A stretch of 64,000 nt of DNA, taken from positions 2,464,001 through 2,528,000 of the forward strand of contig CM000150.2 in assembly GCA_000004695.1 (NCBI GenBank). Reading direction: 5' to 3'. The notes under the pieces were generated by a model that was not told where the DNA came from, made no database searches, and saw only the letters and a list, made by a program, of their open reading frames with translations. Shown here one piece after another: positions 24,074 through 60,800 of this stretch (within the stretch, counting starts at the first letter, position 1; the number at the start of each line of letters is the position of its first letter). This DNA is from Dictyostelium discoideum (Eukaryota). The position numbers and the translations under genes are program-made.

Positions 24074-24105
<32 letters not shown>

Positions 24106-24139
24106 TACTATTATTATTTATTTGATTATTTGTTGCCAT
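21989..24139 (-). CDS. DEAH-box ATP-dependent RNA helicase (DHX35/Prp43-like)
   Basis: 716-aa ORF with GNTGCGKSTQIPQY (motif I), DEAHERSL (motif II), SATL, QRAGRAGR (motif VI) and the OB/HA2 C-terminal region. The N-terminus is poly-N. An upstream exon cannot be ruled out. Confidence 0.85.
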
Positions 24140-37686: not shown

Positions 37687-39392
37687 TTATAGAAAGTACT
37701 GAGTGAATTATTGTATTTTTTGAGATGTTTAGGAAGTTCTATTGCGGGTGTTGATGATGATTTGTGACACCCCTTGTCCTGTTTTATCAATTGGTGCGTG
37801 GTGTGTTATTTTGTTTTTATATTGTTGATTTATTGAGTAAATTTTATTTGTTTTTATATTTGTTTCAGTTAGAAGTGCTGCGTCCAGCTTGTTGTTGTCT
37901 AAAACGGTGTTTATTATGCTGGCAGATTGGATGGTGTTGGATCCTTGGACGTTCCAAACACCTATTCTTATTGTGTTTTTCTTTATAGTTTTATTTGGGG
38001 TAGATTTTTATCTACCTTTTGAAGTTTCTGGTTTATTTTGTCTTCTAACTGATCTTTACTTTGTTCGTTGTGTTGTTGGTCTTGTGTGTTTGTGGGGTTT
38101 TTTGATTTATTGATTTGTTTTAGAATTTCCTTGTTGAAGTTGTCTATATCTTCATCCATTTTTGTTTTTATGCTTTTTTGTCCATATTCACCCAATTTTG
38201 GTTTGACTGGTGTTTTGTTGGTCTTGTTTGTTTTGTCTTGTTGTTTCTTTTTTGGTGTGTTTAACAATTTACTTGGTGAATCGATAATTTTCGATGGTGT
38301 ACCATAGGTTGGGCTGAAACTCATGATATGTTTTATTGGAGAGGAGAAGAACCATTGATTTGAAGGGATTGAAAGTGGGAATTCTATTTTTCTTATTGCA
38401 TCAGTGTTTGGGCTGGTGAAGTCGAAGATATCATTTGCCTCTCTAAGTTTTTCTTCCGTTGTTAGTCCCTTTGTTTCGCCGTGTTGTTTTATTGGTGTAT
38501 TGTATGGAGATGGTGGTTCGATAGGTTTTTCTGATTTTGTTTTAATTTCTTGATTGTTTATCGATTGTGTATTGATCTCATTCTCTATTCTTGTTAGTTC
38601 ATCTACGTTTTCTAGTGATGCTTCTATTACCTTTTGAGCTGTATCATCTAGGGCCATAAATGTTTTATCATTAGATGAGGATGTGATTGGTGGGATAATG
38701 ATTGTTCTTTTTCCTTGTTTTGGTATTTGTTCTGATGTAGATTGTGGTTGTTGTTCATCTGATTGTTTTTTATTTTTGTTTTCTTCTTGATTTTCTGGTA
38801 ATGAGGTTTGATCTCTCCATCCTTTGTTGGAGTGTCCAATTAATGTTAGATTGTCTAGTTCAATGATAGTGTCAAATTCTTCTACGACTCTTTTCACTGT
38901 TTTGATAATTAGAGTTTCGCCTTTAATTTCTGATTTAATTAGTTTACATCCTTCATTTTCTATTACCCATTCTATTTCTGTGAGTGATTTATACCAATCA
39001 AAATCTGTATACATATTTTTTGGTCTTATAGTGGTTATAAATTGTCCTTTTAATTCTGCATCAAACATATTTACAAAATAGATTACTGTACTAATACTGT
39101 CTGTGAGAATTTTGAATGTATTATTACTTTTGATTAAAACATCTTTTTTGTCCAAACTTTTTTCTAAATCTTTTTTTATTTTATCGTCTGGTTCGTGATT
39201 GATGTTTATGACGTATTTGAATTGTTTTTTTTTTAATTGAGTTTTATCCACAATTTCGCTTATTTTTTGTAGGCATTTGTGTTGCTTAATATTTGTGGTG
39301 TTGTTTGTGATTTTCATTTTATTTTCTTTCTATCTTTTTTATTTTTCTTTAAAAAGTTAAAAATCTGGAAATTTTCTAATTAACTTGGTTCC

Positions 39393-40109: not shown

Positions 40110-41723
40110 TTACTTCTTTAAAGATTGGATGATGAGATGAATCAATTGAATATTCAGTGAAAATGAATCGACAACATTGATTTGTCCACTATCTAAAGAA
40201 TTGATAACGATTGATATTAATAGATTCATATTATTTAATAAAACATTAACCATTGTAATATTTAAATTTTTAAAATAATTGGAAATCTTTAAATGACCAC
40301 ATTGTGATGTAGAATAATTTAAAATGTTTGAAAGTAGGTCAATAACATCACCACTAATACCACTAGTATCACCACTATTACCATATCTAAATAATAAAAA
40401 AGATAAAGTTACATCTAATAAAAGTAAATCACCTCTTTTTGAAATTTCAAATGCCAAATATTTGCAATTAAAAAATTTCTTATTTTTAAAAATTTTAATG
40501 ATTTGATTTTTATCATTATTGTCACAAGTATTATCGCAATTGTTAAATAAATTTGAGTTCAACTTTTTCCCATTATAATATTCCATTAAAATTAAATCTG
40601 AATTATCAACTAAACATCTTTTTGGTTCAATTTCTAAATACTTATTCCCACATATATTATAAACGTTGTTTATTAATTGATTTAATTATAGTATCTGAAT
40701 TAATTTTGCCTATTTTTTAAGAATATTGGTTTGGTAATTTAAAAACACAATTTTAAAAATATAAATTTCTTACCAATTGTGACCATTTATTTAAATAAAT
40801 AACTCCATTCCATATATAAGGATCACCATCATTCTTTTTTTTAACCAAAATATATTTATTCATTAGACCATCCAATTATTTAAAAGTTTTGATAGTTTCT
40901 TTTGCCAAAATTTTACTCTCAATTACTTCCAACTTAATGACTCCTGTTTTTTTCTCGTCAACCTTTTTTTTGAGGTCTTCAGAATAGAAAGAGGCTGATG
41001 ATACCCTTTTTGCTCCAGAACCTGGAAAAACTGTATTAATGGTTTGAATATTTAAATTACCATTAATAATATACTTTGGAATAATATGAAGTTCTTCTTT
41101 TGACAAAGTTATACAAATTGAATGCTGCGCGTGTTGATTATCTAAAGTCCCTGTACCGTAATTATAAAGAGGATGATATAAGGTTCTGGAGATTTTGGAA
41201 CACTGTGAATTACATGAATTCCCCCTTCTTCATTCCAAATAAAAAATCCTTTTGCATGTGCCTTTTTTAACACATGAAACATATGAAAAAAAAAGAATTA
41301 ACAACAAATTATAATAAAAAAAAAATAAAAATAAAAATTTAAAATTAACACATACACTATTATCTCCACGGGTTGATCATTATAGGTCAAACTATTATAT
41401 ATAGTTTTACCAGAGCTATTTGGATAACTCTGTTTGTATGTTGATGCAATTGGGTTTGGCTCATGCGGATTCCTAATATTATAATAAGCTAATTCATTAA
41501 TCACCCTATTTAATTCATTATCAGTATAAATAGCACCTCTACTGTGACTCAATTGTTCTAAAACCCACCATTCAACATTCTTTTCTATTTTAACTCCATC
41601 TTTATCTATAAACACCTGACTTTTTGTATAAACATTTTTTGTTGTTATACATTTTGGAGGAACACAATAAATTTGTGATATTAATAAAAATAAATATAGA
41701 ACTATTATATATTTATTTTTCAT
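40110..41723 (-). pseudogene. DNase II-like paralog, copy A. It keeps the signal-peptide exon (41298..41723) and the second exon (carrying one frameshift), but the third exon is deleted or diverged
   Basis: Exon 1 (MKNKYIIVLYLFLLISQIYCVPPKCITTKNVYTKSQVFIDKDGVKIEKNVEWWVLEQLSHSRGAIYTDN...) is paralogous to 55336..55734. Exon 2 (about 40800-41270) codes AHAKGFFIWNEEGGIHVIHSVPKSPE, then a 1-nt frameshift relative to copy B, then ...HAQHSICITLSKEELHIIPKY.... Downstream of the conserved intron (about 40715-40800) the sequence no longer codes DNase II motifs. The 158-aa ORF 40110..40586 is unrelated and low-complexity. Confidence 0.55.
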
Positions 41724-41744
41724 TTCTTAGATCTAGTATAAAAA

Positions 41745-41960
41745 AAAAAAAAAAAAAAATGAATCTATTTTTGCATTGAAATCTAAATTTGGATTTTTTT
41801 AAAAAAAAACGAACGAATTTTTGTTTCAGAAAAAAAAAAAAAAAAAAATTGATTCTTTTTTTTGTGAAAAAAAAAAAAAAAAAATGAATCTATTTTTGCA
41901 TTGAAATCTAAATTTGGATTTTTTTAAAAAAAAACGAACGAATTTTTTTTTTATTGTTTT
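41745..41960. promoter_or_regulatory. Divergent intergenic region between DNase II-like copy A (minus) and the giant gene (plus). It contains a ~70-bp direct repeat, present twice
   Basis: AAAATGAATCTATTTTTGCATTGAAATCTAAATTTGGATTTTTTTAAAAAAAAACGAACGAATTTTT occurs at about 41757-41826 and again at about 41880-41949. A related AAAAACGAACGAAAAT core recurs upstream of copy B (55880-55900). Any function is unknown. Confidence 0.3.
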
Positions 41961-42017
41961 CGAGCATCTCTACAAATCTTTTTTAATTTTTTTTTACGAA
42001 ACAGTTCTAAAATGTTT

Positions 42018-42049
<32 letters not shown>

Positions 42050-42113
42050 CTCAAAAAAAAATTATTAAATCTCAGAATATGTTTTTTTAAATCATATTTA
42101 AATTAAATAAAAA

Positions 42114-44047
42114 ATGGTAAAATATAAAATAATAATATCATTTTTATTTTTTATTTTATATTGCAATTGTTTCACATTTGGTAGTTACACATTTGATACA
42201 AAAAATTGGTCAACAAATGGTACACTATCATCATGTGTTTTTTATGATTTTGTAAATAACGATTATTATGATTTAAGAGCTATTGTCCACAATGATCATC
42301 AAGGTCCTTACAAAGCAAGTTTTCCTGCCGAACTTCCTGGTGGAATTCAAACACCTTATACAATGTATTTTAATCCTTGTTTTAATGATAATGTGTGTCC
42401 AGGTGGTCTTTCAGTAGGTTGTATGAGTTATGTGCAAAATTCACAAAAAATTCTTAATTCCGTTGGTTCACTTTCAGAGCCACATTCTATAACATTAAAT
42501 TCAGAAGGTATTTCTATTGAATATCAATCAGCTCTTTTACCATCAACAACATGTGCCTCTAATGGTAACCGTAGAACTTTGGTTTTATTTATTACTTGTA
42601 TCCCAACCGAAACATTTAAAATTATTGGTACTTATAACAGAAGAGTATTATGTGAACATACAATTTATATATCTTCAAAATTAGTTTGTAAAGATAGAGG
42701 AATATTATTTAATCAAGGTCTATTTTATGATTTAACACCAATGAAATTGTAAGTTGTTAAATTCTTTTTTATATTTTTTTTTTATTTTAATTTTTTTTTT
42801 TTTTTGTTTTTAATAAAAAAAAAAAAAACCAAACACGAAATTTTTTGTTTTTAATAAAAATTAAAATATCTAACCACTTTTTTTTCAATTTTTTATTTTT
42901 TTCTTCCCACAGATTAGCAAGCACTTCACACCAAATTACCAACAGTGACCAAACACAAGATATTCTCTTTAATTTATTCGGAAATGTAAATAGATGTGGT
43001 ACTTTCGGTACATCAACATTAAGTTATCAATCATGTATTTTAACAGTTGCTAATAAAGTGATCGATTATAAACTAGATTCAAGATATGCAACATCACCAA
43101 AATCAGTTATGGTAGGATCTCTCAGTCAACCAAGAACAATTACATTTACAAATGATGTAATAACCATAATTTATAGTTCAACAACTGGTTTCACAGAATG
43201 CTCATCAAATGGTAACAAATATTCATCAAAGTATATTTTAATTTGTGATCCATTCACAGAATATTATGTAGATAAATTTACATTAGAATCACAATGTATT
43301 TATCAAATTAAGGTTTATACTAAATACGCATGTCCAACATTACGTTTATTCAAACAAACACAATATTATGACCTTTCACCATTGATGTTGTAAGTATTCA
43401 ATTTATTCTTGTATTTCTTCAAAACAGTTATTAATTATTAATAATAAAATAAATAATAGGGATTCAACAAGAAATTATACAACAAGTCATATTACAGACG
43501 GATATGAGTATAATATTGTATTCAATATTGGTAATAAAGCACAAATGTGTAGCGATGCATTTAATGATTATTATTTTGCTTGTCAATATGATCCACGTTA
43601 TAAAAGTTTTAATCCACTTGCAAAGGCAAGTTTAGGTCAAAGAGTAACATTTGATTTAAATCAAGTTAAATTCGAATATACTTCACCAATGTCAGGTTGT
43701 TTAAGAACTTTTATTATTGTTTTAACTTGTGATGAAAACCAACATTATCAATTAGTTTCAACTTTAGAATCTCCTGCATGTGTATATACAGTAACAATTG
43801 AAACTAAATATGTATGTGAATCAACAATTTATTACAATAGATTCGACTATACATATTATGATATTACTCCAATAAAAACGTAAGTTTTAAATTAAATTTG
43901 AAATTAAATTTAAATATAAATAATAATATTAATAATATTAATAATCTTTATTGTCAACAACTAAAATATTAATTTAATTAGAGAAAAAGATAGTCCAAAT
44001 AAAATAGATATTGTTGTTGGTGGATATCCATATAGAGTAAGTAAATT

Positions 44048-44100
<53 letters not shown>

Positions 44101-47100
44101 AACAAATATTTTTCTAATAGCTTTTTTATGGTATCGGTAATACTGTTGATTATTGCGGAGAACAAGTGGGATCAGTCCCTGGTGTAGATTATCAAGCTTG
44201 TCAATATCTCAGTGGTCTTGTTATTCAAGTCGGTAGTTTAAAAAATACATCAATGATTCTTAATAAGGATGGTATAAGTATATATCATACCTCACCATTC
44301 GATTTAACCAAAGTGTGCCAAAATACAAGATATCAAAGAGTAAACATTTTAAATATGGTATGTGATCCAACAGCAACAAATGTTGTGGTCAGCGCTACTG
44401 AGACTGCCAACAATTGGGCATGTGAATATACAATCGAAATTAAAACTAAATATGCATGTTCAATTAATTATGCACCAGTATTACCAGTTGTTGGAAATCC
44501 ATGTTTATACAGTTGTACACCACCAGGTGCTTTAAATCCAAAAGCTATAGTTAGTGTACTTTTAAATTTAGGTGTTTGTTTCTCAGAGATTAATAAATAT
44601 GGTACAGGTGCACAATCATTACTTAATATATTTAAAGATACTTGGGTTTCAAATCACAATGGGTATGATGATTGGATGGGTGGACAACTTTATTCACTAT
44701 TATTAACAGGTAAACCACAGTCAACAATTTCACCATATGTTATTTCAATTACACATGATAATTTATGTACATATGGTGCCGATGGGTTAAGTAAAGCAAA
44801 AAATTCAATCAATGATTTTCTTACTATTACAAATGATCTTCTTGAAATTTCAAATCGTGCAGTTAGTTTAACCGTTACCAAATATACATATTCAGATGGA
44901 GCAATTACATTATCAACACATAAACTTTTATCAACATCAACTGGAGGTCTTGCAATTATTAAATACAAAAATTTGCTATGCTACTATTCAATAGTCCCAA
45001 ATTTACAAACTTTAATTATTGGGAGTTATTTGCTTTCTTGCCCATATTATTCACTACCAACTATTACAGTGCACAGTTTAACACCATCAATAGGGAAAGT
45101 TGGAGATACTATCACAATTAATGGTCAAAATTTAGATACAGATATATATGATGTTTATTTCAACATTATTGATGACAACAGTAAAATTAAAGCAACAATA
45201 ACATCAAGAACCGTAAATTTTGTAAAAGTAATTGTTCCAAATGGTTTTGGTAATGCATTAGTCTACACTCAAAATATACTTAATCCAACTACCTCCGATA
45301 AACTTTCATTTTCATATCCATCACCAACGATTGTCAAAGTAATTAGTCAACCATTTAGTACAGGTATCATCAATAGATTCTTTGTTATTGGTCAAAACCA
45401 TCGTTCTTTAATAACCAATATTGTTATTAATCCATACATCGATAATATTGAAAAAGAAGCAATTTATTGTGAAATTGAAAAGTATTGTCCAAGTTCATCA
45501 AAAATTCCATCGATTTCAGGATCAGCAGTAGGTCATCCATGTATTGATTCAACAGTTTACTCTGAGAATTCCCAGTTTTTCGATTATTCCAAGTATGATG
45601 TTTTTGTTTGTATCAAATCATCATTAGGTGTTGGAAGTGGTATCATTAAATTCCCATCACAAACATTTACATTTGCATACTCTTATAAAGCACCTCTCTT
45701 ATATTTTGTACCACCTGGCATTCGTATTCCAACTGATGGTGGTAGTTTTCAATTGGATGGTAAAAACTTTCCGCCAACACAAGAAATCATTGATCTCGGT
45801 TTAAACACACCTGTAATCATTTGGAATAATGATAATTTTGTTACATTCAAAGGAACAAATCTTGCAAATACCAATATCAATTGGAAGAGTTCGAAATCGA
45901 TTTTATGTGTTGCACCACCTGGTTTCGGTGGACCATTCATCGTTACAGTAACTGTCGGTAAACAAGTGTCAAAGACTATATATCCAAGTGATTTAGATGA
46001 AAATCCAACAAATTATAATTTATATTATTATCCCCCAGCAGTTGTTGACATATCAGAAGTTTCAACTGATGGTGGTGAAGTTATAATAAAAGGTACAAAT
46101 TTTATTCCAGCCTCGCTTAAAGATCAAATTAATAATCAACCAATAATCGGTTCACCTCATTCAGTAGAGTTTAATAATGTTTTATCTTCATCATGGACAT
46201 GGATTGATTCAACACATGTAAAAGCCATCGTACAAAAAGGTATTGGTACAATCTCTACAATTGTAAATGTTGGTGGTCAAAGATCTGATTTAAATCCAAT
46301 TCCTGTAAATTTTTACAAAAGACCTGAACTAGATAATAAAAAATATGAAAACTTTGCAAATAGTGATATTTTAATAACTGGTTCTAATTTTATACCAGTT
46401 GGTGTTTCAGCAGGTTCATCAAGTTCTGTCAAAATCGGAGGTATTCCCTGTAACTCTGTAACATGGGTAGATTCAAAATCTGTTATTTGTAATGTGCCAA
46501 TTGGAACTGGTGATAATTTAAATATCCAAGTAACAGTTGGAGGTCAACAAACCGAATTAAATGATTATTTCTCATATTTAGGGCAATGCGATTTCCTCTG
46601 TAGCGATTTATCAAATTTAGTAAGTTTTTAAACATTTTAATTACAGAAAAAAAAAAAAAAACTAAAAAATACTAATTTATTATCATTTTTATCTCAAAGG
46701 AATTAGCAAAAGTTATTGGGGAAAATAAAAAAGATTTAAAGAGTACTCTTTTATTAACAGGTGTATGTTTAGAACAAATTGAGCAATATAATTTCACAGA
46801 TATTAATGATGAAATTGAATCAAGTTGGATTGAAAACTCAATTATTGATGATTGGACAAGTGGTAAATTCTATAACTATTTCAAATCATCAGAATCATAC
46901 TCAACAGTTAAAACACTTGCAAAATATATTACACCAAAGAATCCATGTATTTATGAAAATAAAAGAGTAAAGAATTCATTAGATTACCTTTTTGAAATCA
47001 ATTCAGATATTTTCCATTTAATTGAACTTTCAATTTCATCAAAAATCAGTTATCCAGATTCACCATATGAAACTTATTTCTATGAATCATCAAGCAACCC

Positions 47101-50100
47101 AGAGTATGGTCTTTCAATTATTACATTTGATTCAGCAATTTGTAGCTTTACAGAATCAACTATTCAAGACTATCAAAGTGGAAAAGTATTACAATCATGT
47201 TCAATCATTCCAATTATAAATCAAGTAATTAATCCAACAACAACACTTCAAGCACCATATCAATATTCACTTACAATAATTGGTAGATTATTTGATAGTT
47301 CAACTAGAATATTCTTATCAGGTTATGAATGTCCAATCATTGGTAATATCGCTACTAATCAAAATGATTATATTCAAACTCTTAGTTGTTCAGTACCACC
47401 AGAAATCGAATCATACTCGGCCTCTCAAATTACTTTTTACAATGATTATAGTGAAAATAATATATATAATTTCTTGTTTTATTTTAAAAAATCATTCTTT
47501 TTTAAATATCCAATTTCAACAGTAACTCAAATTCAATACCCATCAAGTGGTCCAATTCAAATGAATTCTGAAATTAAAGTAATTGGTTTTAATTTCTTCC
47601 CATATGGTATTACAAATCCAAGCATTCAAGTTTTTATTGATGATCTTGAATTAACTGATACTATATTTGGATTAACAAGCATAAATGGAGTTGATTCATT
47701 TTCATTTATTGCTTCTGGTTTAGGTTCTTTAAAGTAAGTGAAAAAAAAAAAATTAAAAAAAAAAATTTATAAATATTTATTAATATTTAAAAATATTTTT
47801 TTACAGTTTCATTCGATTATTTTATAGTAATAGTTTACCGATGTTTATAAACGATGATATTAATTTAGAATTCTCATTTGAAAGACCAATTATTAATAGT
47901 ATATTACCAACAAATGGAGATTACAATACAAAAGTTACAATTAATGGTAATAATTTTAGAAAAGGTCAATCAGTAAAAATTGGAGACATATTAGTAAATG
48001 ATATTGAATTCATTTCAAACCAAGAGATTATTGCTTCAGCACCATTTGGATTTATTAGTGGACTTGTAGTTGTTTATTCAGATGATCAATTCAGTTTAGA
48101 AGAAATATCATTTAGTTATACTTCACCAATTATAGACCAAGTTATTCTTTCAAATTATGAATCAAAATTAAACACAACAGGTACAAATTATTTCACAGTA
48201 ATAGGTAGAGGTTTAGGTACATACATTGCAGAACAAGTCGATATTATTATCAATCAAGAGTTTTATGCAAGTTGCGAATTCGATTTCTGTGAAAGTTTAG
48301 AAATTATTGAAGATATAGATATAAAAGATCAAGGAATTTGTCAATATTTAAAATATAATAAATATCAATATATCAATGAAAACTTTGATATATTAAATTG
48401 TATTTTAACCGATTCGATTGGTAAAGATAAATCAATCAGTATCAAAATTTCAGAATTCCAAAACCAAACTTTCACCTACTCTTATTATGAACCATGGATT
48501 GAAAAATTAACACAAAACTCTTCATCAGCAAACACTGATGGTGGTGAAGTTATCGTTATAAATGGTTACAACTTTTTACCATTCGAAAATTTAAGTCCAT
48601 ACTATGAAAACAATGAAACTATTGCACAATGGTTAAATCAATCAGAAATATTAATTGGTGAAAGCTATCTTTGTCAATCAATTAATTGGACCAATTCCTA
48701 TGAATTAAATTGTACAATCCCACCAGGAATTGGTGTTAATCATACAATCATTGTAAAAGTAGGCCTTCAATCATCAAATCATACTGATTATTTGTATTCT
48801 TACGATTCACCAAACCTTGATACAATCAATAACTCCACTGGAAATGAAACACATTACTATTCTTCAACAGATGGTAACAATGAAATTATAATAACAGGTT
48901 ATAACTTTATTCCAAAAGAGTTATCAGATCATTACAACCAGAATGAAAATAAAACCATAAATTCAATACTATTAGGTAAACAATATTGTAATGAAACTAT
49001 TTGGATTAATTCAACAACAGTCAAATGTAAACCAATAGCAGGTATCGGGTCAAATTACAAAATTATCATTAAAGTTGGTAATCAAGATTCAAACGAAACC
49101 GTTTACTTCTCATATGAGAAGCCAATTTTAGATTTAAAGAATTACACAGGTTCAACAAATGGTAATACTGAAATTACAATAACAGGTATCAACTTTATTC
49201 CAAAAGAATTAGCAGATAATAATAATTTCAATCAATCAGAGAACTATATAATGATTGGTGATAATAAATGTAACGAAACTATTTGGATCAACTCAACAAC
49301 AGTTAAATGTAAACCAATATCAGGTACTGGTATCAATCATAGAGTTATAATAACAGTTGGTAATCAAAACTCAAATGAAACGGTCTACTTTTCATATGAT
49401 AAACCAATTTTAGATATTAAAAACTATAGTAGTCCAACTGATGGCAATACTGAAATCACAATAACAGGTGAAAACTTTATTCCAAAAGAATTAGCAGAAA
49501 ATAATAATTTCAATCAATCAGAGAACTATATAATGATTGGTAATAATGAATGTAATGAAACTATTTGGATCAATTCAACAACAGTTAAATGTAAACCGTT
49601 AGCAGGTATCGGGTCAAATTACAAAATTTTCATTAAAGTTGGTAATCAAGATTCAAATGAAACCGTTTACTTCTCATATGAGATGCCAATTTTAGATTTA
49701 AAGAATTACACAGGTTCAACAAATGGTAATACTGAAATTACAATAACAGGTATCAACTTTATTCCAAAAGAATTAGCAGATAATAATAATTTCAATCAAT
49801 CAGAGAACTATATAATGATTGGTGATAATAAATGTAATGAAACTACTTGGATCAATTCAACAACAGTTAAATGTAAACCAATATCAGGTACTGGTATCAA
49901 TCATAAAGTTATCATAACAGTTGGTAATCAAAACTCAAATGAAACGGTCTACTTTTCATATGATAAACCAATTTTAGATATTAAAAACTATAGTAGTCCA
50001 ACTGATGGAAATACTGAAATCACAATTACAGGTGAAAACTTTATTGAAAATTATAATCAAGAAAAACATAATGAAAATGATAATTTCGTTAGAATTGGTG

Positions 50101-52856
50101 AAAATAAATGTAATGAAACAAAGTGGATAAATTCGACAACAATTAAATGTAAAATAATTCAAGGTATTGGTTTAGATTATAAAATAGTTGTAACAGTTGC
50201 CAATCAACAATCAAATGAAAATGTTTTCTTTTCATATGAAAAACCAATGATTGACAGTAAAACACTATTAGCATCAACCAGTGGCAGTGAAACTATTAAA
50301 ATTACAGGTACTAATTTCATTCCATCAACTTTAGTAGAACATTACAACAAAGAAGAAAATAAAGATAACTCAATAAATTCAGTTACTATCAATAACGAGT
50401 TTTGTAATGATATTACATGGATTAGCTCAACAGAACTAACATGTAAACCATTAGCAGGAGTTGGAACCAATCATACTATATTCATTTTGGTTGGAACTCA
50501 AAAATCAAATGAAGAAAACTCATTCTCATATAAACCTCCGAATATTGAAGAGTTTAAATACTACACAGCACCAACACATTCCAATAAAATTATTACTATA
50601 ACTGGTGAAAACTTTATTCCAATCGAATTATTATCAAAAGACAACAGCAATAGTTCAGTACTTATTGATAATATAAAATGTGAAGAAATCAAATGGATTG
50701 ATTCAACAAAAGTTTCATGTCAAGTTCCAGTAGGTCAAGGTAAAGATTTATCGATTAAAGTTAAAATTGAAAATCAAGAAACTGAAGAAAATCAACAATT
50801 TTCATATGATAAACCATTTATTCAATCAATCAATCCAAATAAAGGAAGATGTAATCAAGAAGTATTAATTACAATTCAAGGTGATAGTTTTGGAAAGAGT
50901 GATCAACTAATTAAAATTGGTAATAACGAATGTCAAGATATTCAATTCTATCCAAATCATACATTTACATGTAAAGTTCCAATCGTGGAGAATTCAATTG
51001 AATCCATTGTTTTATTAAATGTTGGCAATCAAGATTCAAACGATAACATTACATATAAATACTATGGACCACCAGAAATTAAAAGTATTGGTTTACCATC
51101 ATATCTTTCATTCAAAGGTGATGATTTAATTACAATCATTGGTAATAACTTTATAGAATATGATGATGGATCTGATGAAATTGTTAAATTTAATAATGAA
51201 CCAACAACTATCATTGAAAACACAGAAACATACATTAAAATTAAAACTCTTAGTGGTGATGAATTTAATGTACCAATTGCTGTAGAATTAAATGGTCAAA
51301 TAAGTAATACAGATACTTCATTCGTTTACTCAAATCCAATAATTGAAAGTGTAACACCATCATCAAGTAGCTCAAAATCAAATACTAATATCATCATTAA
51401 AGGACATAATCTTGGGTATTTAACAAACACTCCCAAAATTACAATTGGAAGTAGTAATTGTTTAAATATCAAAACTATATCTCCAAATGAAATTCATTGC
51501 ATCGTTATGAAATCAAGCGCAGGCACTAAACAATTAACATTAACCTATGAAAGTTATCAACCAACCTATTCACAATTCACTCACAAAAACGATGATGACA
51601 GTGATAGCCACGATGATGATGATGATGACCATAAAAACAATAATGGACCAAAAAACACCATATTAAGTATTCTTGGAGGTATAATTGGAGCAGCAGCATC
51701 AGCAGCCGTAAGTGGATTTATAACAAGCATTTTCGGTGGTGCGACATCAGTAGCCACAGCAGCAGCAACAGCAACAGCAGCAGGTACTGCGGTAGCAGCA
51801 GCAACTACAGCGTCAACAGCAACAGCTATTGCCGGTGCAATTACCGAAGGTGTTGCAGTGGCCTTTACAGGGGTATCAGTAATAGCAGCAACAGCAGGTG
51901 GTGTTGTTATTACTTCAATTGTAACAGCAACAGCCATCCTTATTTCAGGTGGAAGTACACAATCACCAACTCCAACCATAGCTCCAACTATTTCACCAAC
52001 TCCAACGCCAACCGATAACTATTGGGTAAGATGTATGGTCGATTATTCAAGATTAACTTTACAAGTCGATAATCTTTACGGTCAAGATATAGTATGTATT
52101 GATGGTAATGGAATTTCATCAATTTTCAACGAATCATTCTCTTGTAAACCTGATCTTATTAACGATGGTATGATATGTGCTCAACAACATCAAGATGGAA
52201 CAAATTCAACAACCACATTTGGTAATTCAACATTAATTTGTCATATTGACTCAACAAAATCATGTGAAATTTCACCACCATTCATCATACCATCCGATCC
52301 AATTGAAGATGATGAATATTCAAATATTCTAGAATGTCAATATAATCTCATTGAAAATTCATTATCAACACACTCTAATAATAGTCCACTAAGATGTTAT
52401 AATAATGAAACTGAAAATTACTTCATTATGAATACTACACTTTCATGCTCAAAAGATGAATCATTAAGTCAAGATAAAGATACGATTTCTTGTTTAGCAG
52501 ATACAGATGACACTCAAATCTTTTTCTATAAGAACTCAATTACATGCATTACAGATTATCCATACTATAGATGTACAATGAAATCTCAACCATCACAAGA
52601 TGATAACATAATTCCAAAACCAACATTACCACCAATTCCATCAATTGATGATGATTCCACATGTATTTATGATTCAGCCAATTCATATTCAATAGATCTC
52701 CAACTAACGACTGGAACTAATGCTAAATGTCCAAAAAATGAAAAAGAACTTCGTTATGATCTTTCAACTTCTCTAACATGCACTGATTATATCACACTTA
52801 AAAACTCCACTTATTCAATTTCATATTCAAATTACATTTGCATTAAAACAAAATAA
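42114..52856 (+). CDS. Giant secreted or membrane protein (~3,390 aa): signal peptide, ~5 MRH/CI-MPR-like Cys repeats, >=15 IPT/TIG repeats, a Gly/Ala/Thr/Val-rich hydrophobic segment, and a C-terminal Cys-rich domain. Model: join(42114..42748,42913..43389,43460..43879,43982..44036,44121..46619,46700..47733,47807..52856)
   Basis: All six donors are GTAAGT. The acceptors are CCCACAG, AATAG, ATTAG, CTAATAG, TCAAAG and TTTACAG, and the phases check out (635+477+420+55+2499+1034+5050 = 10170 nt). The N-terminus MVKYKIIISFLFFILYCNCF is a signal peptide. Exons 1-3 and 5 each code ~150-aa modules ending C-x-Y-x-[IV]-x-[IV]-x-TKY[AV]C followed by YYD[LI][ST]P. That is the same motif order as cation-independent mannose-6-phosphate receptor (CI-MPR) repeats, C.Y.F.W.T..AC then [YF]DLSPL. 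Exons 5-7 code repeated TDGG...I.G.NFIP...C....W.....VKC....G.G......V.VG.Q.S modules (IPT/TIG-like). A segment ILSILGGIIGAAASAAVSGFITSIFGGATSVATAAATATAAGTAVAAATTASTATAIAGAI...VVITSIVTATAILISGG sits at 51660-51960. This is followed by a Thr/Pro linker and a ~290-aa Cys-rich C-terminus. Confidence 0.75.
48990..50040 (+). repeat. Near-identical tandem repeats inside exon 7 (two alternating ~270-bp TIG modules, A-B-A'-B')
   Basis: ...ITGYNFIPKELSDHYNQNENKTINSILLGKQYCNETIWINSTTVKCKPIAGIGSNYKIIIKVGNQDSNETVYFSYEKPILDLKNYTGSTNGNTEITITGINFIPKELADNNNFNQSENYIMIGDNKCNETIWINSTTVKCKPISGTGINHRVIITVGNQNSNETVYFSYDKPILDIKNYSSPTDGNTEITITGENFIPKELAENNNF... repeats almost verbatim, at above 95% nucleotide identity. 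Confidence 0.8.
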
Positions 52857-53194
52857 AAACAATTAAAAAATTTTAAAAAACAAAATGATATAATAATTTA
52901 ATGAAATAATTTAATTACTATTTTTACTATTTTTTTTATTTTCAAAAAACTGTAATTAAATTATTTCATTAAATCATTATGTCACACCACCCAAAATTCA
53001 ATTCTGAAAACTTTTTTTATTTAATTACCCTTAAGAAAAAATTAAATGTGAAAATAAATGTTATATTTATTTTAGTTTTGTTTTTTTTTTTAAATTATCA
53101 TTAATAATAATGATGCACCATTTGGTATTATCTAATTTTGAAAACTAAAAAAAAAAAAATTTATTTTTGGAATTAGTTAAATTTAAAAAAAAAT

Positions 53195-55300
53195 TTAAAT
53201 TAAAATATAATTAATACTTACACCTTTGGTATATTCACCCAAAACTTTTGTAAATTCCTTAATGGAATTGATGTTTTGTAGATCACCATGTCTATTTTCA
53301 GTTAAGAGAATACAATAGATAAGATGATCTTGGCAATCTGGATGATATTTAATGATTTTTGAGTCTGTATCACTTGGAAAAGCTTTACATATTTTTTTAT
53401 TAATTTCATTATAATCCTTATGACCTTTTTCGCTATCACTTTGATCGCCTTCGATTTTATTTGGGAATTTAAATGGTACTAAATCATTGATTTCAACTTC
53501 TTTCAATTGAATGATGTTTTTATTTTTAATAAATTTCAATTTTTCATAAAGTTCTTTTACTAAATCAATATTTTTTAAATCGATATATATCTTATCTGGG
53601 AAAGGTGTGAGTATTGATGTTGGTTCGATAATGGTATTTTGTGTTAGAGCAGTTACCTTTTTATTATCTCTTGATGAGGTAAGTGTAAATGTTGATTCAA
53701 CATAGATATCTTTAAACAATTGGTAAGATTTGGATTTTTCAAAGCTACAAGTGACATCATCATTATCACATAAAATAATTTCCCCATTGATTGATGGAAA
53801 CACATTGAAATCGAATAACTCTGATTTGTATATATTTTGATCCTTAAGTTGGGTTAATAGTGGAATATAAACATTGTCATAACCATAGTTATATTCATTT
53901 GAAAATAATTTATCTTCATCTTTTTCATTATTGTAAACGATATTAAATGGATTCAAATGATAGTATTTTTCATCATCTCCATAACCTTTTACCTTGGTTT
54001 CAAAGTTTAGCTTTCTGTTACCTAAAACATTAGATCATTTGGATATTTTTCTATTAATTCGTTTAAATTCAACTTTTGACCTGCAATGCTATTTAATCTT
54101 AAAGAAGCTTTTCTAAGATATTGACCATCCTCTGGGTGTCTAATTATACCAACTCTTCTGTAAAAGTATTCAGAAAGATATTTCATTTCGTCACTGCAAA
54201 AAGAACCACCTCCACGTGCCTCTTGCCTTCCATGCCAATTTAAATCACCAAAGCAAATAGTCCCACCACCGCCACCGCTATATGCTTTATCCATATAATT
54301 GATTTGATAAGACATTTTTGAATGGTCACTTCCTGAATCAGAGCTAATAACTGTTGACCAAGGTGTTTCGAATCTGTAAGAAAGATATATTGATACAACT
54401 GCTGGAGACATTTCATTTTTTCCTTTTTCCATCTTTGTTTGAGTATGGACCATTGTTTTAAAATTATTACCATTTTTAAAACTATAGATGTAATGCCAAA
54501 GTATAAAAAATTTAATTTTTTCCTTGTGAGTATTTTCAATTTTATCACTATACTCTTTATAAAGGTGTGTATTTGTTGTTTGAATGAAGTAATCCCCTTT
54601 ATTTTTACTCTCATAAATTTTATTATAGTGAACATTTGTTTCATGAGCTGTATCTGATGATGTAATATTTTTGTTTAGAATTAAATCTGCCTATTTTAAG
54701 AATGTAAGTTTGATGATTTATTAACACAAATTTATAATTAAAATTACTTACCAATTGTGACCATTTATTTAAATAAATAATTCCATCCCATATATCAGGA
54801 TCAACTTTATTCTTTTTTTTAACAAAAATATTATCACTCATTAGATCATCCAATTCTTTAAAAGTTTTGGGAATTTTTGTTTCTAAAATTGAACTATCAA
54901 TTTTTTCCAACTTAATGACTCCTGAGCTTATCTTTTCAACCTCTGTTTGAAGATTTTCGGAATAAGAATCGGCTGATGATACCTTTTTAACCTTTTTACC
55001 ATTTCCTGTTGAAACTGTATTAATGGTTTGAATATTTAAATTACTATAAATAATATACTTTGGAATAATATAAAGTTCTTCTTTTGACAAAGTTATACAA
55101 ATTGAATGTTGAGCATGTTGATGATTTAAAGTATTTTTATCGAAATTAAAAAGAGGTTCATATCCTGTTTCTGGAGATCTTGGAACACTGTGAATTACAT
55201 GAATTCCCCCATTTTCATTCCAAATGAAAAATCCTTTTGCATGTGCCTTTTTTAAATAAATAAATTAAAAAAAAAAAATATGTTAACAAATAATGATAAC

Positions 55301-55337
<37 letters not shown>

Positions 55338-55734
55338 AATAATAAACACAAACACTATCTTCACCACTACTGAGCTGATCATTATAAGTCAAACTATTAT
55401 ATATAATTTTGTTGTCAGATTTATTTGGTAAACTCTGTTTGTATGTAGATGTAATAGGGTTTGGTTCTTTTGGATCTCTAATATTATAATTTGCAATTTC
55501 ATTTATCTCTGAACTTCCTCCTTTTAATGTGTTATCAGTATAAATAGCACCTTGACTGTGACTTAATTGTTCTAAAAACCACCATTCGACATTCTTTTCT
55601 ATTTTAACTCCATCCTCAAATACTTGACTATCCTTGTAAATATTTTTTGTTGTTATACATTTTGGAGGATCGTTACAATAAATAGGTGATATTAATACAA
55701 ATAAATATAAAAAAATAATATATTTATTTCTCAT
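53195..55734 (-). CDS. DNase II-like (acid deoxyribonuclease) paralog, copy B. Exons approx complement(join(54022..54690,54751..55246,~55350..55734)). The C-terminal extension ORF 53195..53956 is out of frame because of a 4-nt deletion relative to copy C
   Basis: The N-terminus MRNKYIIFLYLFVLISPIYC is a signal peptide. Exon 2 codes KKAHAKGFFIWNENGGIHVIHSVPRSPETGYEPLFNF (first DNase II HxK motif). Exon 3 codes ...SDSGSDHSKMSYQINYMDKAYSGGGGGTICFGDLNWHGRQEARGGGSFCSDE (second HxK and the RGGG..C motif) and then ends KYPNDLMF* at 54022. The paralog-conserved continuation (KLNFETKVKGYGDDEKYYHLNPFNIVYNNEKDEDKLFSNEYNYGYDNVY...SINYILI*) is in another frame; ccaaatgatctaatgttttagg here corresponds to ccacagcgtctaaaagaaattttagg in copy C. 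Intron donors are GTAAGT. Confidence 0.6.
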
Positions 55735-56164
55735 TTTCTTAAGTCTAATGTTATAATGTTTGTTTCAATTTTTTAAAATTGGGTGTGTTTTTGCGAAAAA
55801 AAAAAAAAAAAAAAAAAAAATGGCTTTGTCGTCAACAAAAAAGAAAAAAAACTAAAATTGGATCATTTAAAATAAAATAAAAAAACGAACGAAAATATTT
55901 TTTTTTAATCGTTTTTAGATGGTTTTACCACTCCTTTGATTATTGAAAATCTTTTTTAAATATTTTTAGATTTTTTTTTTTTTATTTTTTTCGACCCATT
56001 ATTTTATAAAAAAAAAAATAATAAAAATTACCCCCACAAACCGCTTTTTTTTTTTTTTTTCACAAAGCCTGGTTTTTAATTTTTTTAACACTTTTTGGCT
56101 TTGCATCTTTATCGCTTAAAATACGGTTTGGAAAATACAACATTTTTTTTTTAATCAACCATAC

Positions 56165-56196
<32 letters not shown>

Positions 56197-56212
56197 TCGT
56201 ATTGAAATTAAA

Positions 56213-57808
56213 AAAAAATGGTAAAATTTTAAATAGTTATATCATTTTTATTATTTATTTTATATTTTAATTGTTTCACATTTGGTAGTTACACATTTGA
56301 TACAAAAAATTGGTCAACAAATGGTACACTATCATCATGTGTTTTTTATGATTTTGTAAATAACGATTATTATGATTTAAGAGCTATTGTCTATCCTGAT
56401 CATCGAGGTTCCCACAGAGCAAGTTTCACAGCTGAGCTTTCTGGTGGAATTCAAACACCATATACAATATATTTTAATCCTTGTTTTAATGATCATATGT
56501 GTCCAGGTGGTCTTTCAGTAGGTTGTATGCAAAAATAGAGGAGTATTATTTAATCAAGGTCTATTTTATGATTTAACACCAATGAAATTGTAAGTTATTA
56601 AATTCTTTTTCATATTTATTTTTTTATATTTTTTTTTTTTAAAATAATTATCAAAAAATAAAAAAAAAAAAGAACCAAACACAAAATTTCAAAATAAAAA
56701 AATCTAATCTTTTTTCACTTTTTTTTATTTTTTTTTAATTTTTTTATTTTTATTTTTTTTTCCCACAGATTAACAAGCACTTCACACCAAATCACCAATG
56801 ATGACCATACAAAAGATATTCTCTTTAATTTATTCGGAAATGTAAATAGATGTGGTACTTTCGGTACATCAACATTAAGTTATCAATCATGTATTTTAAC
56901 AGTTGCTAATAAAGCGATCAATTATAAACTAGATTCAAGATATGCAACATCACCAAAATCAGTTATGGTAGGATCTCTCAGTCAACCAAGAACAATTACA
57001 TTTACAAATGATGTAATAACCATAATTTATAGTTCAACAACTGGTTTCACAGAATGCTCATCAAATGGTAACAAATATTCATCAAAGTATATTTTAATTT
57101 GTGATCCATTCACAGAATATTATGTAGATAAATTTACATTAGAATCACAATGTATTTATCAAATCAAAGTTTATACTAAATACGCATGTCCAACATTACG
57201 TTTATTCAAACAAACACAATATTATGATCTTTCGCCATTGATGTTGTAAGTATTCAATTTAATTAAAAAACTTTTTTGGTGTTTTATTCTTTTGCGCTTA
57301 TTAATTATTAATAATAAAATAAATAATAGGGATTCAGCAAGAAATTATACAACAAGTCACTTTACAGACGGATCTGAGTTTTTTATTGTATTCAATATTG
57401 GTAATAAAGCACAAATGTGTAGCGATGCATTAAATGATTATTATTTTTCTTGTCAATACGAACCACGTCAAAAATTTTTTTATCCACTTGCAAAGGCAAG
57501 TTTAGGTCATAGAGTAACATTTGATTTAAATCAAGTTAAATTTGAATATACTTCACCATCAACAACAACTTGCTCATCAAATTCCTATAAAAGAGATCTT
57601 ATTGTTATTTTAAATTGTGATGAAAACCAACATTATCAATTAGTTTCAACTTTAGAATCTCCAACATGTGTATATACAATAACAATTAAAACTAAATATG
57701 TATGTGAATCAACAATTTATTACAATAGAATTAACTATACCTATTATGATATTACTCCAATAAAAACGTAAGTTTTAAATTAAATTTAATTATAAATTAT
57801 AAATTATA

Positions 57809-57874
<66 letters not shown>

Positions 57875-60800
57875 TATAACTTTATTAACAACCAAAACTA
57901 TTAATTTTAATTAGAACAAAAGATAGTCCAAAAACTGTAGATATTGTTGTTGGTGGATATCCATATAAAGTAAGGGATAATTTTTAAATTTTTAAATTTT
58001 TTTTTTTTTTTTTTTTTTTTTTTGACAAACACCAAACGTGTGTGAAACTAAAATTTAAATATTTTATATATATTTAAAAATGGTTACTAACTTTACTTTA
58101 TTAATTTTTTCCAACAGCTTTATTACGGTATAGGTAATACTGTTAATTATTGCTCAAATCAAGTGGAGTCAGTTCCAGGTGTTGATTATCAAGCTTGCCA
58201 ATATCTCAGCGGTCTTGTTATTCAAGTCGGTAGTTTAAAAAATACATCAATGTATATAAGTAATAATGGTATAAGTATATATCATACCACACCATTTGAT
58301 TTAACCAGAGTATGCCAAAATACAAGATATCAAAGAGTGATACAACAGCAATTAACGTTGTGGTCAGCGCTACGGAGACTGCCAATTATTGGGCATGTGA
58401 ATATACAATCGAAATTAAAACCAAATATGCATGTCCAATTAATTATGCACCAGTATTACCAGTTGTTGGAAATCCATGTTTATACACTTGCACACCACCA
58501 GGTGCTTTAAATCCAAAAGCTATAGTTTGTGTACTTTTAAATTTAGGCTTGTTTCTCAGAGATTAATAAATATGGTACAGGTGCACAATCATTACTTGTT
58601 ATATTCAACAATACTTGGGTTTTAAACCACAACGGATATGATGATTGGATGGGTGGACAACTTTATTCACTATTACTAACAGGTAAACCACAAACATCGA
58701 TTTCACCATATGTTAGTTCAATTACACATGATAATTTATGTACATATGGTACCAATGGGTTAAGTAAAGCAAAAAATTCAATCAATGATTTTCTTACTAT
58801 CACAAATGATCTTCTTGAAATTTCAAATCGTGCAGCCAGTTCAACCGTTACCAAATATACATATTCAGATGGAGAAATTACATTATCAACACATAAACTT
58901 TTGTCAACATCAACTGGAGGTCTTGCAATTATTAAATACAAAAATTTGCTATGCTACTATTCAATAGTTTCAAATTTACAAACTTTAGTTATTTCGAATT
59001 ATTTGCTTTCATGTCCATATTATTCACCAACTATTACAGTGTTCAGTTTAACACCATCAACAGGGCAAATTGGAGATATTATCACAATTAATGGTCAAAA
59101 TTTAGATACAAATAGATATGATGTTTATTTCAACATTATTGATGACAACAGTAAAATTAAAGCAACAATAACATCAAAGTAATTAGTCAACCATTTAGTA
59201 CAGATATCATCAATAGATTCTTTGTTATTGGTCAAAACCATCGTTCTTTAATAACCAATATCACCATTTATCCATATATCGATAATATTGAAAAAGAAAC
59301 AATATATTGTGAAATTGAAAAGTATTGTCCAAGTTCATCAAAAATTCCATCGATTCCAGAATCAGCAGTAGGTCATCCATGTATTGATTCAACAGTTTAC
59401 TCTGAGAATTCTCAGTTTATAAGGTACAAATTTTATTCCAGCCTCGCTTGCAGATCAAATTAATAATCAATCATTAATTGGTTCACCAAATTCAGTCACG
59501 TTTAATAATGTTTTATCTTCATCATGGAAATGGATTAACTCAACACATGTAAAAGCCATCGTACAAAAAGGTATTGGAGCAATCCTTACAATTGTAAATG
59601 TTGGAAGCCAAAGTACTGAAACGAGTCCATATCCCGTAATTTTTTATAAACAACCTGAATTAGATAATAAAAAATATGAAAACTTTGCAAATAGTAATAT
59701 TTTAATAACTGGTTCTAATTTTGTACCAGTTAGTGTTTCAGCAGGTTCATCAAGTTCTGTCAAAATCGGAGGTATTCCCTGTAACTCTGTAACATGGGTA
59801 GATTCAAAATCTGTTATTTGTAATGTACTAATTGGAACTGGTGATAATTTAAATATCCAAGTAACAGTTGGAGGTCAACAAACCGAATTAAATAATTATT
59901 TCTCATATTTAGGGCAATGCGATTTCCTCTGTAGCGATTTATCAAATTTAGTAAGTTTTTAAACATTTTAATTACAGAGGAAAAAAAAAACTAAAAAATA
60001 CTAATTTTTTACATTATAATCTCAAAGGAATTAGAAAAAGTTATTAGAGAAAATAAAAAAGATTTAAAGCAATAGTTCAGTACTTATTGATAATATAAAA
60101 TGTGAAGAAATCAAATGGATTGATTCAACAAAAGTTTCATGTCAAGTTCCAGTAGGTCAAGGCAAAGATTTATCGATTAAAGTTAAAATTGAAAATCAAG
60201 AAACTGAAGAAAATCAACAATTTTCATATGATAAACCATTTATTCAATCAATCAATCCAATTAAAGGAAGATGTAATCAAGAAGTATTAATTACAATTCA
60301 AGGTGATAGTTTTGGAAAGAGTGATCAACTAATTAAAATTGGTAATAACGAATGTCAAGATATTCAATTCTATCCAAATCATACATTTACATGTAAAGTT
60401 CCAATCGTGGAGAATTCAATTGAATCCATTGTTTTATTAAATATTGGCAATCAAGATTCAAACGATAACATTACATATAAATACTATGGACCACCAGAAA
60501 TTAAAAGTATTGGTTTACCTTCACATCTTTCATTTAAAGGTGATGATTTAATTACAATCATTGGTAATAACTTTATAGAATATGAAGATGGATCTGATGA
60601 AATTGTTGTTAAATTTAATAATGAACCAACAACTATCATTGAAAACACAGAAACATACATTAAAATTAAAATTCTTAGTGGTGATGAATTTAATGTAACA
60701 GCAACAGCCATCCTTATTTCAGGTGGAAGTACACAATCACCAACTCCAACCATAGCTCCAACTATTTCACCAACTCCAACGCCAACCGATAACTATTGGG

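Follow-up and report, generated by a model that had tools for sequence, protein, structure and literature searches.

An in-frame repeat of two TIG domains in a giant surface-type protein of Dictyostelium discoideum and its possible origin by non-allelic recombination

Introduction

In surface proteins with repeated domains, unequal crossing-over and non-allelic gene conversion are the general means by which arrays of Ig-like/TIG domains expand in tandem and evolve in concert. A large gene on chromosome 1 of Dictyostelium discoideum carries such an array, in which two TIG modules occur twice in the order A-B-A'-B' at high identity, and it raises the question of whether the repeat is a young duplication, with the array still growing, or an older array re-patterned by copying. 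The window analyzed here is a stretch of 64,000 nt (GCA_000004695.1, contig CM000150.2, positions 2,464,001 to 2,528,000 of the forward strand), to which all coordinates refer.

The Host Gene and Its Cluster

The host gene (42114–52856, + strand) is modeled with seven exons (42114–42748, 42913–43389, 43460–43879, 43982–44036, 44121–46619, 46700–47733 and 47807 or 47828–52856, all +) that encode 3382–3389 aa with a signal peptide, an MRH-like part, multiple TIG domains, a hydrophobic anchor and a Cys-rich tail. GTAAGT donors and frame-preserving AG acceptors give one open frame, and an independent annotation of the identical locus reports a 3382-aa product that equals one splice variant of the model. 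The TIG domain (Pfam PF01833) matched 12 stretches of the exon-7 ORF (E = 7.3e-137) and 3 stretches of the exon-5 ORF (E = 7e-26). In exon 3, a PRKCSH_1 (MRH-like) match scored 24.6–25.0 bits, above the cutoff of 23, and the segment after it showed faint CIMR and PRKCSH_1 matches. The sequence also predicts an N-terminal hydrophobic leader, 51 N-glycosylation sequons and an anchor region of ~100 aa, rich in Ala/Thr/Gly and with two hydrophobic cores, which is followed by a 301-aa Cys-rich, sequon-bearing tail; the leader, sequons and anchor bear out the suggestion of a first-pass annotation that the protein is of a cell-surface type.

This gene, whose product would be secreted or anchored in the membrane, heads a tandem cluster. 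Copy 2 (55012–63272, +) is a degenerate paralogue that aligns in blastn blocks of 81–98% identity with large deletions; it lacks the equivalent of 46741–50646 and hence the whole array, and it is frameshifted at 61084. The annotation of a second D. discoideum assembly (GCA_054883475.1) gives it a product of 1321 aa. The cluster has the same order in D. cf. discoideum, a cryptic sister species that is ~6% diverged: a big gene, a degenerate copy, DNase II and a gene of ~3197 aa. All cluster genes lie on the + strand and the intervening DNase II genes on the − strand. Exon 1 differs by 11.2% between copy 1 and copy 3 but by 5.4% between copy 3 and its orthologue, the sister paralogue p1, and in exon 5 copy 1 differs from its orthologue by 6.1%, against 9.5% for copy 3. 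Since these distances agree with the cluster order, the first genes of both clusters are taken as orthologous. On the other hand, AX4 copies 1 and 3 differ by only 2.6% in exon 6, and in exon 7 the sister-species genes are 2–3% apart, against 4–6% between species. Because these exons cluster by species, gene conversion acts in the cluster, and the paralogues have demonstrably exchanged sequence through it. With its giant MRH-TIG genes in tandem and DNase II genes between them, the cluster is a place where a sister species allows exchange among paralogues to be dated.

Structure of the Repeat

Self-comparison of the window at an offset of 564 nt showed that 48987–49481 and 49551–50045 (both +) are identical at 481 of 495 nt (97.2%), with 14 mismatches and no gap, against a background identity of 25–40% at the same offset. 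The offset corresponds to two TIG modules of 282 nt (94 aa), codon-aligned and within exon 7. A two-TIG cassette repeated in this exon at above 95% identity, as the first-pass annotation had claimed, is therefore confirmed and is in frame; its proposed sizes, ~270 bp for the module and ~540 bp for the unit, have to be corrected to 282 bp and 564 bp. Tandem Repeats Finder reported 48987–50045 with a period of 282 and 3.8 copies, and its maximum period of 500 placed a 564-nt period beyond its reach; a further repeat search gave copies every 282 nt, the third of which is 95% identical to the first. Only 1.88 cassettes are present. A spacer of 69 nt (49482–49550) parts the two 495-nt blocks, and the ends of both blocks fall in the middle of TIG domains, away from the domain borders.

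It was considered that the reference assembly might have expanded the repeat falsely, a possibility whose probability is practically negligible. Its only attraction is the general difficulty of repeats in AT-rich genomes, and it is countered by 14 differing sites with a codon-position bias unlike that of sequencing errors, by unique sequence in the junction unit, and by a sister-species orthologue of equal length. The region 48700–50300 also matches the independently assembled GCA_054883475.1 at 1601 of 1601 positions (0 mismatches and 1 gap over 18.2 kb). Because it is identical there, the repeat is real and no assembly artefact, although that genome belongs to the same laboratory lineage and so is uninformative on natural variation. 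The repeat of the D. discoideum reference is in this way documented together with its exact structure. An earlier warning of mis-assembly from short reads applies in a mild form, in that 8 of 910 150-mers are non-unique, but it does not extend to 250-mers, none of which is non-unique, and the longest exact stretch common to both blocks is 153 nt.

Age of the Cassettes and Selection

Nine of the 14 differences between the cassettes are synonymous (Sd 9/101, Nd 5/394; P = 4.5e-4 for at least 9 of 14), which gives a dS of 0.095 and a dN/dS of 0.13 and indicates that both cassettes have been under purifying selection since they diverged. Nucleotide diversity in D. discoideum is 0.0008 (PMC2895654) and the median gene diversity is 0.0014 (bioRxiv 10.1101/2025.10.22.684067), so that the cassette dS is about 70–120 times the diversity of the species. 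The divergence at all sites (2.8%) likewise exceeds within-species diversity and is too high for a duplication that is still segregating. With a mutation rate of 2.47e-11 (PMC7466956), dS/2mu would put the divergence at about 1.9e9 generations. AX4 and sister-species genes differ at a dS of 0.15–0.19; by this comparison the AX4 cassettes split at roughly half the depth of the divergence between the species.

These values bear on the view that the duplication is very recent, that the array is still expanding and that wild strains differ in copy number, which now seems very unlikely. The identity of 97.2% and a unit number that varies among paralogues speak for it, and rearrangement within the species is known from related surface-gene families of Dictyostelium (PMC12745789; bioRxiv 10.1101/2025.10.22.684067). 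It is contradicted by the synonymous divergence and the significant synonymous excess, by a unit number that has stayed constant across ~6% divergence, and by the absence of any other recent internal duplicate, since apart from the cassette pair no two parts of the gene match at more than ~87%. Neither "very recent" nor "still expanding", the terms first applied to the array, can thus be upheld. More generally, high identity between repeat copies is not readable as recency where gene conversion is active.

The Five-Unit Sub-Array and the Mosaic Unit U5

The blocks lie in a sub-array of five TIG units (48804–50237, +), delimited by the FSY motif and a MAFFT alignment: U3 (48804–49115, 312 nt), U4 (49116–49397, 282 nt), U5 (49398–49679, 282 nt), U6 (49680–49961, 282 nt) and U7 (49962–50237, 276 nt), all on the + strand. 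In the identity matrices U4 and U6 are 97.9% identical and the remaining unit pairs 67–85%. The first block runs from the C-terminal part of U3 through the whole of U4 and 84 nt into U5; the second likewise runs from the C-terminal part of U5 through the whole of U6 and 84 nt into U7. The spacer is the middle segment of U5, encodes PKELAENNNFNQSENYIMIGNNE and interrupts the 564-nt periodicity. It is of the U4/U6 type, 95.7% identical to the neighboring modules at an offset of 282 (3 of 69 positions mismatch the U4 and U6 middles) but only 58–59% identical to the middles of U3 or U7, of which no further copies were found in the window.

Base-by-base comparison shows U5 to be a three-part mosaic. 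Its switch from U7-type to U4-type sequence lies at 49473–49481 (+), inside AACTTTATT, a 9-nt stretch common to U4, U5, U6 and U7; the switch points sit in AACTTTATT and TGTAATGAAAC, both of which are sequence common to the units. The annotated passage from A-B to A-B-A'-B' by simple duplication therefore describes the pattern but is incomplete, given the mosaic U5 and an array of different composition in the sister species. The divergences of the sub-blocks are alike (2/84, 6/282 and 6/129). Clustering of the mismatches, which would point to mosaic conversion, was evaluated by hand calculation and was not significant (longest gap 153 nt, P about 0.09). A period-2 signal was looked for outside the repeat block and none was found, the C-terminal part of U7 being 75% identical to both the U3c/U5c and the U4c/U6c types; homogenization of an old A-B-A'-B' array was rejected in its simple form on this ground.

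Unit Number and Composition in Relatives

AX4 45000–52856 is colinear with a 3429-aa gene of D. cf. discoideum at 93.85% identity, and this orthologue has five units, with no indel and with the unit lengths of AX4. Two paralogues in the same species have the order U2-U3-U4-U7-U8, that is, a three-unit U3-U4-U7 array, and in a D. firmibasis copy U3 and U4 are followed by just one U7-like unit. AX4-lineage copy 3, which starts about 1 kb beyond the end of the window, has 3197 aa, against 3198 and 3199 aa in the three-unit sister-species genes. The D. cf. discoideum proteins are 78–83% identical to the host protein and D. firmibasis RB653_006925 is ~70% identical; another D. firmibasis locus, L001, was rejected as an orthologue (35–46% identity, different flanks). 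This distribution indicates an ancestral sub-array of three units, U3-U4-U7; the first cluster gene has five in D. discoideum as well as in its cryptic sister. The part of the first-pass annotation that foresaw changes in unit number holds over evolutionary time, with three units in the paralogues and D. firmibasis and five in the host gene. Its prediction of copy-number differences among strains is weakened, since the sister orthologue keeps five units despite ~6% divergence, which comes close to the invariant repeat number named there as evidence to the contrary.

The five units are composed differently in the two species. The central 213 nt (49551–49763, +), made up of the C-part of U5 and the N-part of U6, differ at 34 of 213 positions (16%) between AX4 and the sister orthologue, against ~5% elsewhere. 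In AX4 this segment is a copy of U3c-U4n (7 mismatches in 213 nt to AX4 U3c-U4n, 12 to that of the sister and 14 to the sister paralogues), and in the sister orthologue it is of the U4c-U7n type. The extra units of the sister species are about 4–7% from their source units, and are thus as old as the species split. No derived base was found that is common to AX4 U5 and sister U5 and absent from the source units. The breakpoints from U7-type to U4-type also differ (GAA in AX4 U5; ATT and GTC in sister U5 and U6), and one site of the middle segment is T in all three AX4 units and G in all compared sister U4, U5 and U6 units.

Origin of the Repeat

As marks of a change in the array, an in-frame multiple of the unit, homologous junctions and a unit number that differs in relatives were all found. 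Since the two copies are offset by precisely 2 × 282 nt, with switch points in sequence shared by the units, recombination would have taken place at homologous, in-frame positions. The best reading of the sub-array is that non-allelic recombination adds and rearranges its units in the course of evolution. For the repeat itself, a product of non-allelic homologous recombination that re-patterned an inherited five-unit array by copying is given a probability of about one in two, and the AX4 arrangement most likely reflects one recombination event of this kind rather than a fresh two-unit duplication.

The common ancestor of AX4 and the sister species would already have had the two extra units, which probably arose when unequal exchanges of one unit joined the N-part of U7 to the remainder of U4, the arrangement that the sister species still shows. 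A single event of non-allelic gene conversion or unequal exchange in the AX4 lineage would afterwards have copied U3c-U4-U5n over U5c-U6-U7n; alternatively, the donor may have been the corresponding block of copy 3, the three-unit paralogue. This tract would be exactly the stretch that can be aligned at the 564-nt offset, ending where the unrelated middles of U3/U5 and U5/U7 start, and it would have produced the A-B-A'-B' appearance with the unit number unchanged. The event is placed after the species split because the cassette dS is below the interspecies values and the AX4 center is nearest to its own U3c-U4n. As it is in frame and swaps homologous domain parts, the domain folds would be kept, and a glycosylated Ig-like stalk would merely be lengthened or reshuffled. 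Two successive one-unit unequal exchanges were ruled out for AX4 by reasoning from unit structure, since they cannot produce its arrangement, although they can produce that of the sister.

Alternatively, the AX4 lineage may have gained the repeat by duplication de novo, a less probable reading that deserves to be kept in view. Here a three-unit U3-U4-U7 array would gain 564 nt in one event, either by a U7/U3 unequal exchange with a 69-nt conversion patch from U4 or in a single pass of replication whose template switched backward twice, at AACTTTATT and at TGTAATGAAAC; in the sister species, two unequal exchanges of one unit each would separately have brought the number to five. The equal divergence of the sub-blocks is what a single event predicts, the cassette divergence is younger than the species split, older period-2 signal is lacking outside the block and the three-unit state is widespread. 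Additionally, breakpoints and diagnostic sites group by species; the lack of a shared derived U5 base, the differing breakpoints and the T/G site weigh against a shared origin because an independent origin predicts such patterns, and under a shared origin the species-specific breakpoints and the T/G site need further conversion events. Two further points count against copying within an inherited array, namely that a homologous-recombination tract does not easily run through 213 nt of only ~80% identity and that the counts that place the AX4 center are small (7 vs 12 mismatches). On the other hand, de novo duplication requires that the first gene gained two units, no more and no fewer, on separate occasions in the two species, with the third gene staying at three in each, and an additional patch or a double switch of template has to be assumed as well. 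Grouping by species is also seen in whole exons of paralogues that predate the split, so that conversion accounts for it without an independent origin.

Relation to tgr Genes and Other MRH-TIG Loci

The array resembles TIG arrays in general in its in-frame integer multiple of the domain, its breakpoints at homologous positions within domains, its grouping of units by species, a unit number that varies between paralogues, and a frame kept by selection. Specific here are a two-domain cassette with mid-domain ends and two species with equally long but differently composed arrays; nothing in this is unusual, and the array appears to be a product of ordinary recombination-driven evolution.

A comparison with the tgr ("tiger") family, which includes the allorecognition genes tgrB1/tgrC1, had been suggested. 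The host protein would resemble tgr proteins in its predicted signal peptide, its IPT/TIG repeats outside the cell and a putative membrane anchor, and both kinds of gene form tandem clusters with pseudogene copies and paralogue-to-paralogue exchange; duplication, recombination and gene conversion have been described in the literature for the tgrBC locus. The tgr family is delimited by sequence similarity with AX4 tgrA-tgrT (PMC12745789). The host protein has N-terminal MRH-like domains, which two published descriptions of the tgr architecture do not mention, and it differs further in its at least 15 TIG stretches, its double hydrophobic region and its Cys-rich tail. The head-to-head pairing of tgrB1/tgrC1, found in many but not all tgr genes, contrasts with co-oriented cluster genes and interleaved DNase II, and databases name the host's relatives "MRH domain-containing" or "IPT/TIG domain-containing" rather than Tgr. 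The one link shown between the host gene and the tgr genes is the TIG domain in common. By analogy, the MRH-TIG cluster might be a second recombination-prone surface-protein locus like tgrBC, with wild strains that differ in module number or composition and hence in recognition, but this is an unlikely proposal; if it were true, non-allelic conversion among TIG modules and paralogues would keep yielding extracellular variants that affect cell-cell or cell-prey recognition. The practical value of the locus is modest, as a comparison for tgrBC in the evolution of Dictyostelium surface proteins, and it opens no new question.

The architecture and tandem clustering of the host gene recur in D. firmibasis (RB653_006925/6, and RB653_009586 with its neighbor) and in D. 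cf. discoideum (ACTFIZ_008383/4), RB653_009586 being only 36% identical to the host protein and at a non-syntenic locus. The D. firmibasis "MRH domain-containing" relatives and ACTFIZ_008383/4 have the three-unit U3-U4-U7 sub-array, unlike the five-unit host gene. DNase II genes adjoin the relatives' genes in D. firmibasis and D. cf. discoideum, as they do at the host cluster.

Architecture of the Exon 7 Repeat

The window is AT-rich, and its DEAH helicase of 716 aa (21992–24139, minus strand) is letter-for-letter D. discoideum AX4 XP_645858.1. Tandem Repeats Finder reported a period of 282 nt in 3.8 copies at 48987–50045, and a repeat finder returned five copies at 282-nt spacing, the third being 95% identical to the first. 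Sliding identity at an offset of 564 nt reaches 0.93–1.00 over ~48990–49440 and beyond that drops to a background of 0.25–0.40; the maximal ungapped segment pairs 48987–49481 with 49551–50045 (495 nt, 14 mismatches, 97.2% identity). Self-comparison thus bears out the high-identity two-TIG repeat proposed in the first-pass annotation, and its dimensions (modules of ~270 bp in a ~540-bp unit) are corrected to modules of 282 nt forming a cassette of 564 nt, present 1.88 times. The repeat structure is confirmed by a second D. discoideum assembly (GCA_054883475.1) that is identical at 1601 of 1601 nt over 48700–50300 and shows 0 mismatches and 1 gap over 18.2 kb of the window. We infer that this is probably the AX2-214 genome of PMC12745789; it comes from the same laboratory lineage and is therefore uninformative on natural variation.

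The gene carrying the repeat (copy 1 of a tandem cluster, 42114–52856, plus strand) consists of seven exons joined via GTAAGT donors and frame-keeping acceptors into one frame of 3389 aa. An alternative acceptor at 47828 yields 3382 aa, the product length in an independent annotation of the identical locus, so the earlier assignment of the repeat to exon 7 was right. In Pfam, the exon-7 ORF matches 12 TIG stretches (E=7e-137), exon 5 three more, and exon 3 an MRH-like PRKCSH_1 domain above cutoff. The product, a surface-type or secretory-pathway protein, has a hydrophobic leader at the N-terminus, and 25 of its 51 N-glycosylation sequons fall within the five-unit sub-array U3–U7. Its C-terminal part (51690–52856, model residues about 2990–3389) comprises an Ala/Thr/Gly-rich region of ~100 aa that holds two hydrophobic cores; the 301 aa beyond it form a tail containing 16 Cys and 7 sequons, for which Pfam gave nothing above cutoff. 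This membrane-anchor region is unusual in placing two cores ahead of a Cys- and sequon-bearing tail; such a tail would seem to lie outside the cell, in which case a hairpin would be likelier than a single pass through the membrane. The TIG domain is shared with the tgr family, which appears similar in surface-protein layout and also in its cluster dynamics as reported in PMC12745789 and the companion preprint. Unlike tgr genes, this gene has MRH-like domains, far more TIGs, and a different C-terminus and cluster layout; its relatives carry names other than Tgr, the comparison being one of features and names.

Divided at its conserved FSY motif, the array resolves into U3 (48804–49115), three units of 282 nt each (U4, U5 and U6, the first beginning at 49116) and U7 (49962–50237). 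The ends of the high-identity block fall off the domain borders, such that [U3 C-part][U4][U5 N-part] matches [U5 C-part][U6][U7 N-part]. U5 is a mosaic in three parts: nt 1–84 match U7 at 97.6%, the 69 nt in the middle match U4 and U6 (identical to one another there) at 95.7%, and the closing 129 nt match U3 at 95.3%. The sequence first switches within AACTTTATT, 9 nt common to U4–U7. An older two-unit periodicity was searched for outside the high-identity block and none was seen, and no other internal match across the gene exceeded about 87%.

Age of the Repeat and Comparison With a Sister Species

Nine of the 14 differences between the cassettes are synonymous third-position changes (dS=0.095, dN=0.013, omega=0.13, Nei-Gojobori), and this synonymous excess (P=4.5e-4) means that both cassettes have been translated and constrained since their divergence. 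For D. discoideum, PMC2895654 gives a nucleotide diversity of 0.0008, and long-read assemblies give a median gene diversity of 0.0014 (bioRxiv 10.1101/2025.10.22.684067). Silent-site divergence of the cassettes is ~70–120x that between two random alleles, and the proposed very recent origin fails on the population scale. With a base-substitution rate of 2.47e-11 per site per generation (PMC7466956), and silent sites taken as neutral, we infer a divergence of ~1.9e9 generations. The dS of the pair is about half of that between AX4 and the genes of the cryptic sister species D. cf. discoideum (0.15–0.19).

Relatives were located by exhaustive HMMER search. In 'Dictyostelium cf. discoideum', ACTFIZ_008384 (3198 aa) and its neighbor (3199 aa) both read U2-U3-U4-U7-U8, the three-unit state to which the internal anatomy of AX4 had already pointed; a degenerate copy in D. 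firmibasis has U3, U4 and then one U7-like unit. A third sister-species gene, upstream (3429 aa), is colinear with AX4 45000–52856 at 93.85% identity, without indels in the array and with identical unit lengths. Cluster order is alike in both species (big gene, degenerate copy, DNase II, ~3197-aa gene), and sequence distances agree with this orthology: in exon 1 (42114–42748), copy 1 of AX4 is 11.2% distant from copy 3, which is 5.4% distant from its sister-species counterpart, and in exon 5 the lowest distance for copy 1 is to the 3429-aa gene (6.1%). The first gene therefore has five units and the third gene three in both species. The picture of a recent, still expanding and polymorphic array is unsupported on present evidence, and unit number is unchanged in this one cross-lineage comparison.

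Offset-564 identity in the sister-species array is only 89.9%. The orthologues are ~5% apart throughout, except that the central 213 nt (U5 C-part and U6 N-part) diverge by 16%. In AX4 these 213 nt are a copy of U3c–U4n and in the sister species they are of the U4c–U7n type, so that its U5 and U6 are both hybrids, with the N-part of U7 fused to the rest of U4. The AX4 segment is nearest to U3c–U4n of AX4 itself, at 7/213; the U3c–U4n of the sister species stands at 12 and that of its paralogues at 14. Exchange between paralogues by gene conversion can be seen directly: D. discoideum copies 1 and 3 differ by only 2.6% in exon 6 (46700–47733) against the exon 1 value, and the three sister-species genes are mutually 2–3% apart in exon 7.

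Origin of the Cassette

The favored reading (probability about 0.5) is that a five-unit array was inherited and later overwritten in the AX4 lineage. Non-allelic conversion or exchange would have replaced U5c–U6–U7n with U3c–U4–U5n, or with the matching block of copy 3 as alternative donor, and the non-homologous middle segments would have set the tract limits. Alternatively, 564 nt of a three-unit array may have been duplicated de novo in the AX4 lineage, the sister species gaining two units in parallel. This account, possible but regarded with some doubt, draws on the species-specific breakpoints and diagnostic sites; conversion, demonstrated here, yields such by-species clustering anyway, equal unit gains in positionally orthologous genes would be a coincidence, and a 69-nt patch or a double template switch is additionally required. 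Under overwriting and duplication alike, there was one recombination event in the AX4 lineage, after the sister-species split and long before the coalescence of present-day alleles. The original observation is confirmed and its interpretation partly supported. The finding is an ordinary one, a fresh example of a known process; such change is the standard mode of evolution of repeat-domain arrays.

The Surrounding Cluster

The cluster occupies 41028–54500, 55012–63272 and 63784–64000. Copy 2 (55012–63272) is a degenerate version that has lost large segments and is frameshifted at 61084; the region upstream of copy 3 starts at 63784, and its gene, intact and 3197 aa long in the second assembly, lies ~1 kb past the window end. 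Frame-broken TIG gene fragments also adjoin intact genes in D. cf. discoideum (locus 8387–11154) and D. firmibasis (locus 9817–12147). Their deletions differ from those of copy 2, an indication that copies in the cluster have probably arisen and decayed more than once. DNase II-family genes lie between the copies on the minus strand (~53090–55728 and from 61856 onward), an interleaving also seen in D. cf. discoideum, and in D. firmibasis a DNase II gene adjoins the tandem paralogues. Compared with its paralogue at 61954–63225, the DNase II-like gene lying downstream of the TIG gene (53195–54453, minus strand) shifts frame near 54030; this is probably an intron and not a disabling frameshift, because a product of 775 aa is annotated there in the second assembly. 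Finally, a 444-aa ORF (37983–39317, minus strand) belongs to a 17-member cluster at 90% identity, spread over at least 14 D. discoideum contigs and annotated throughout as 'hypothetical protein', and is probably part of a dispersed repeat or transposable element.
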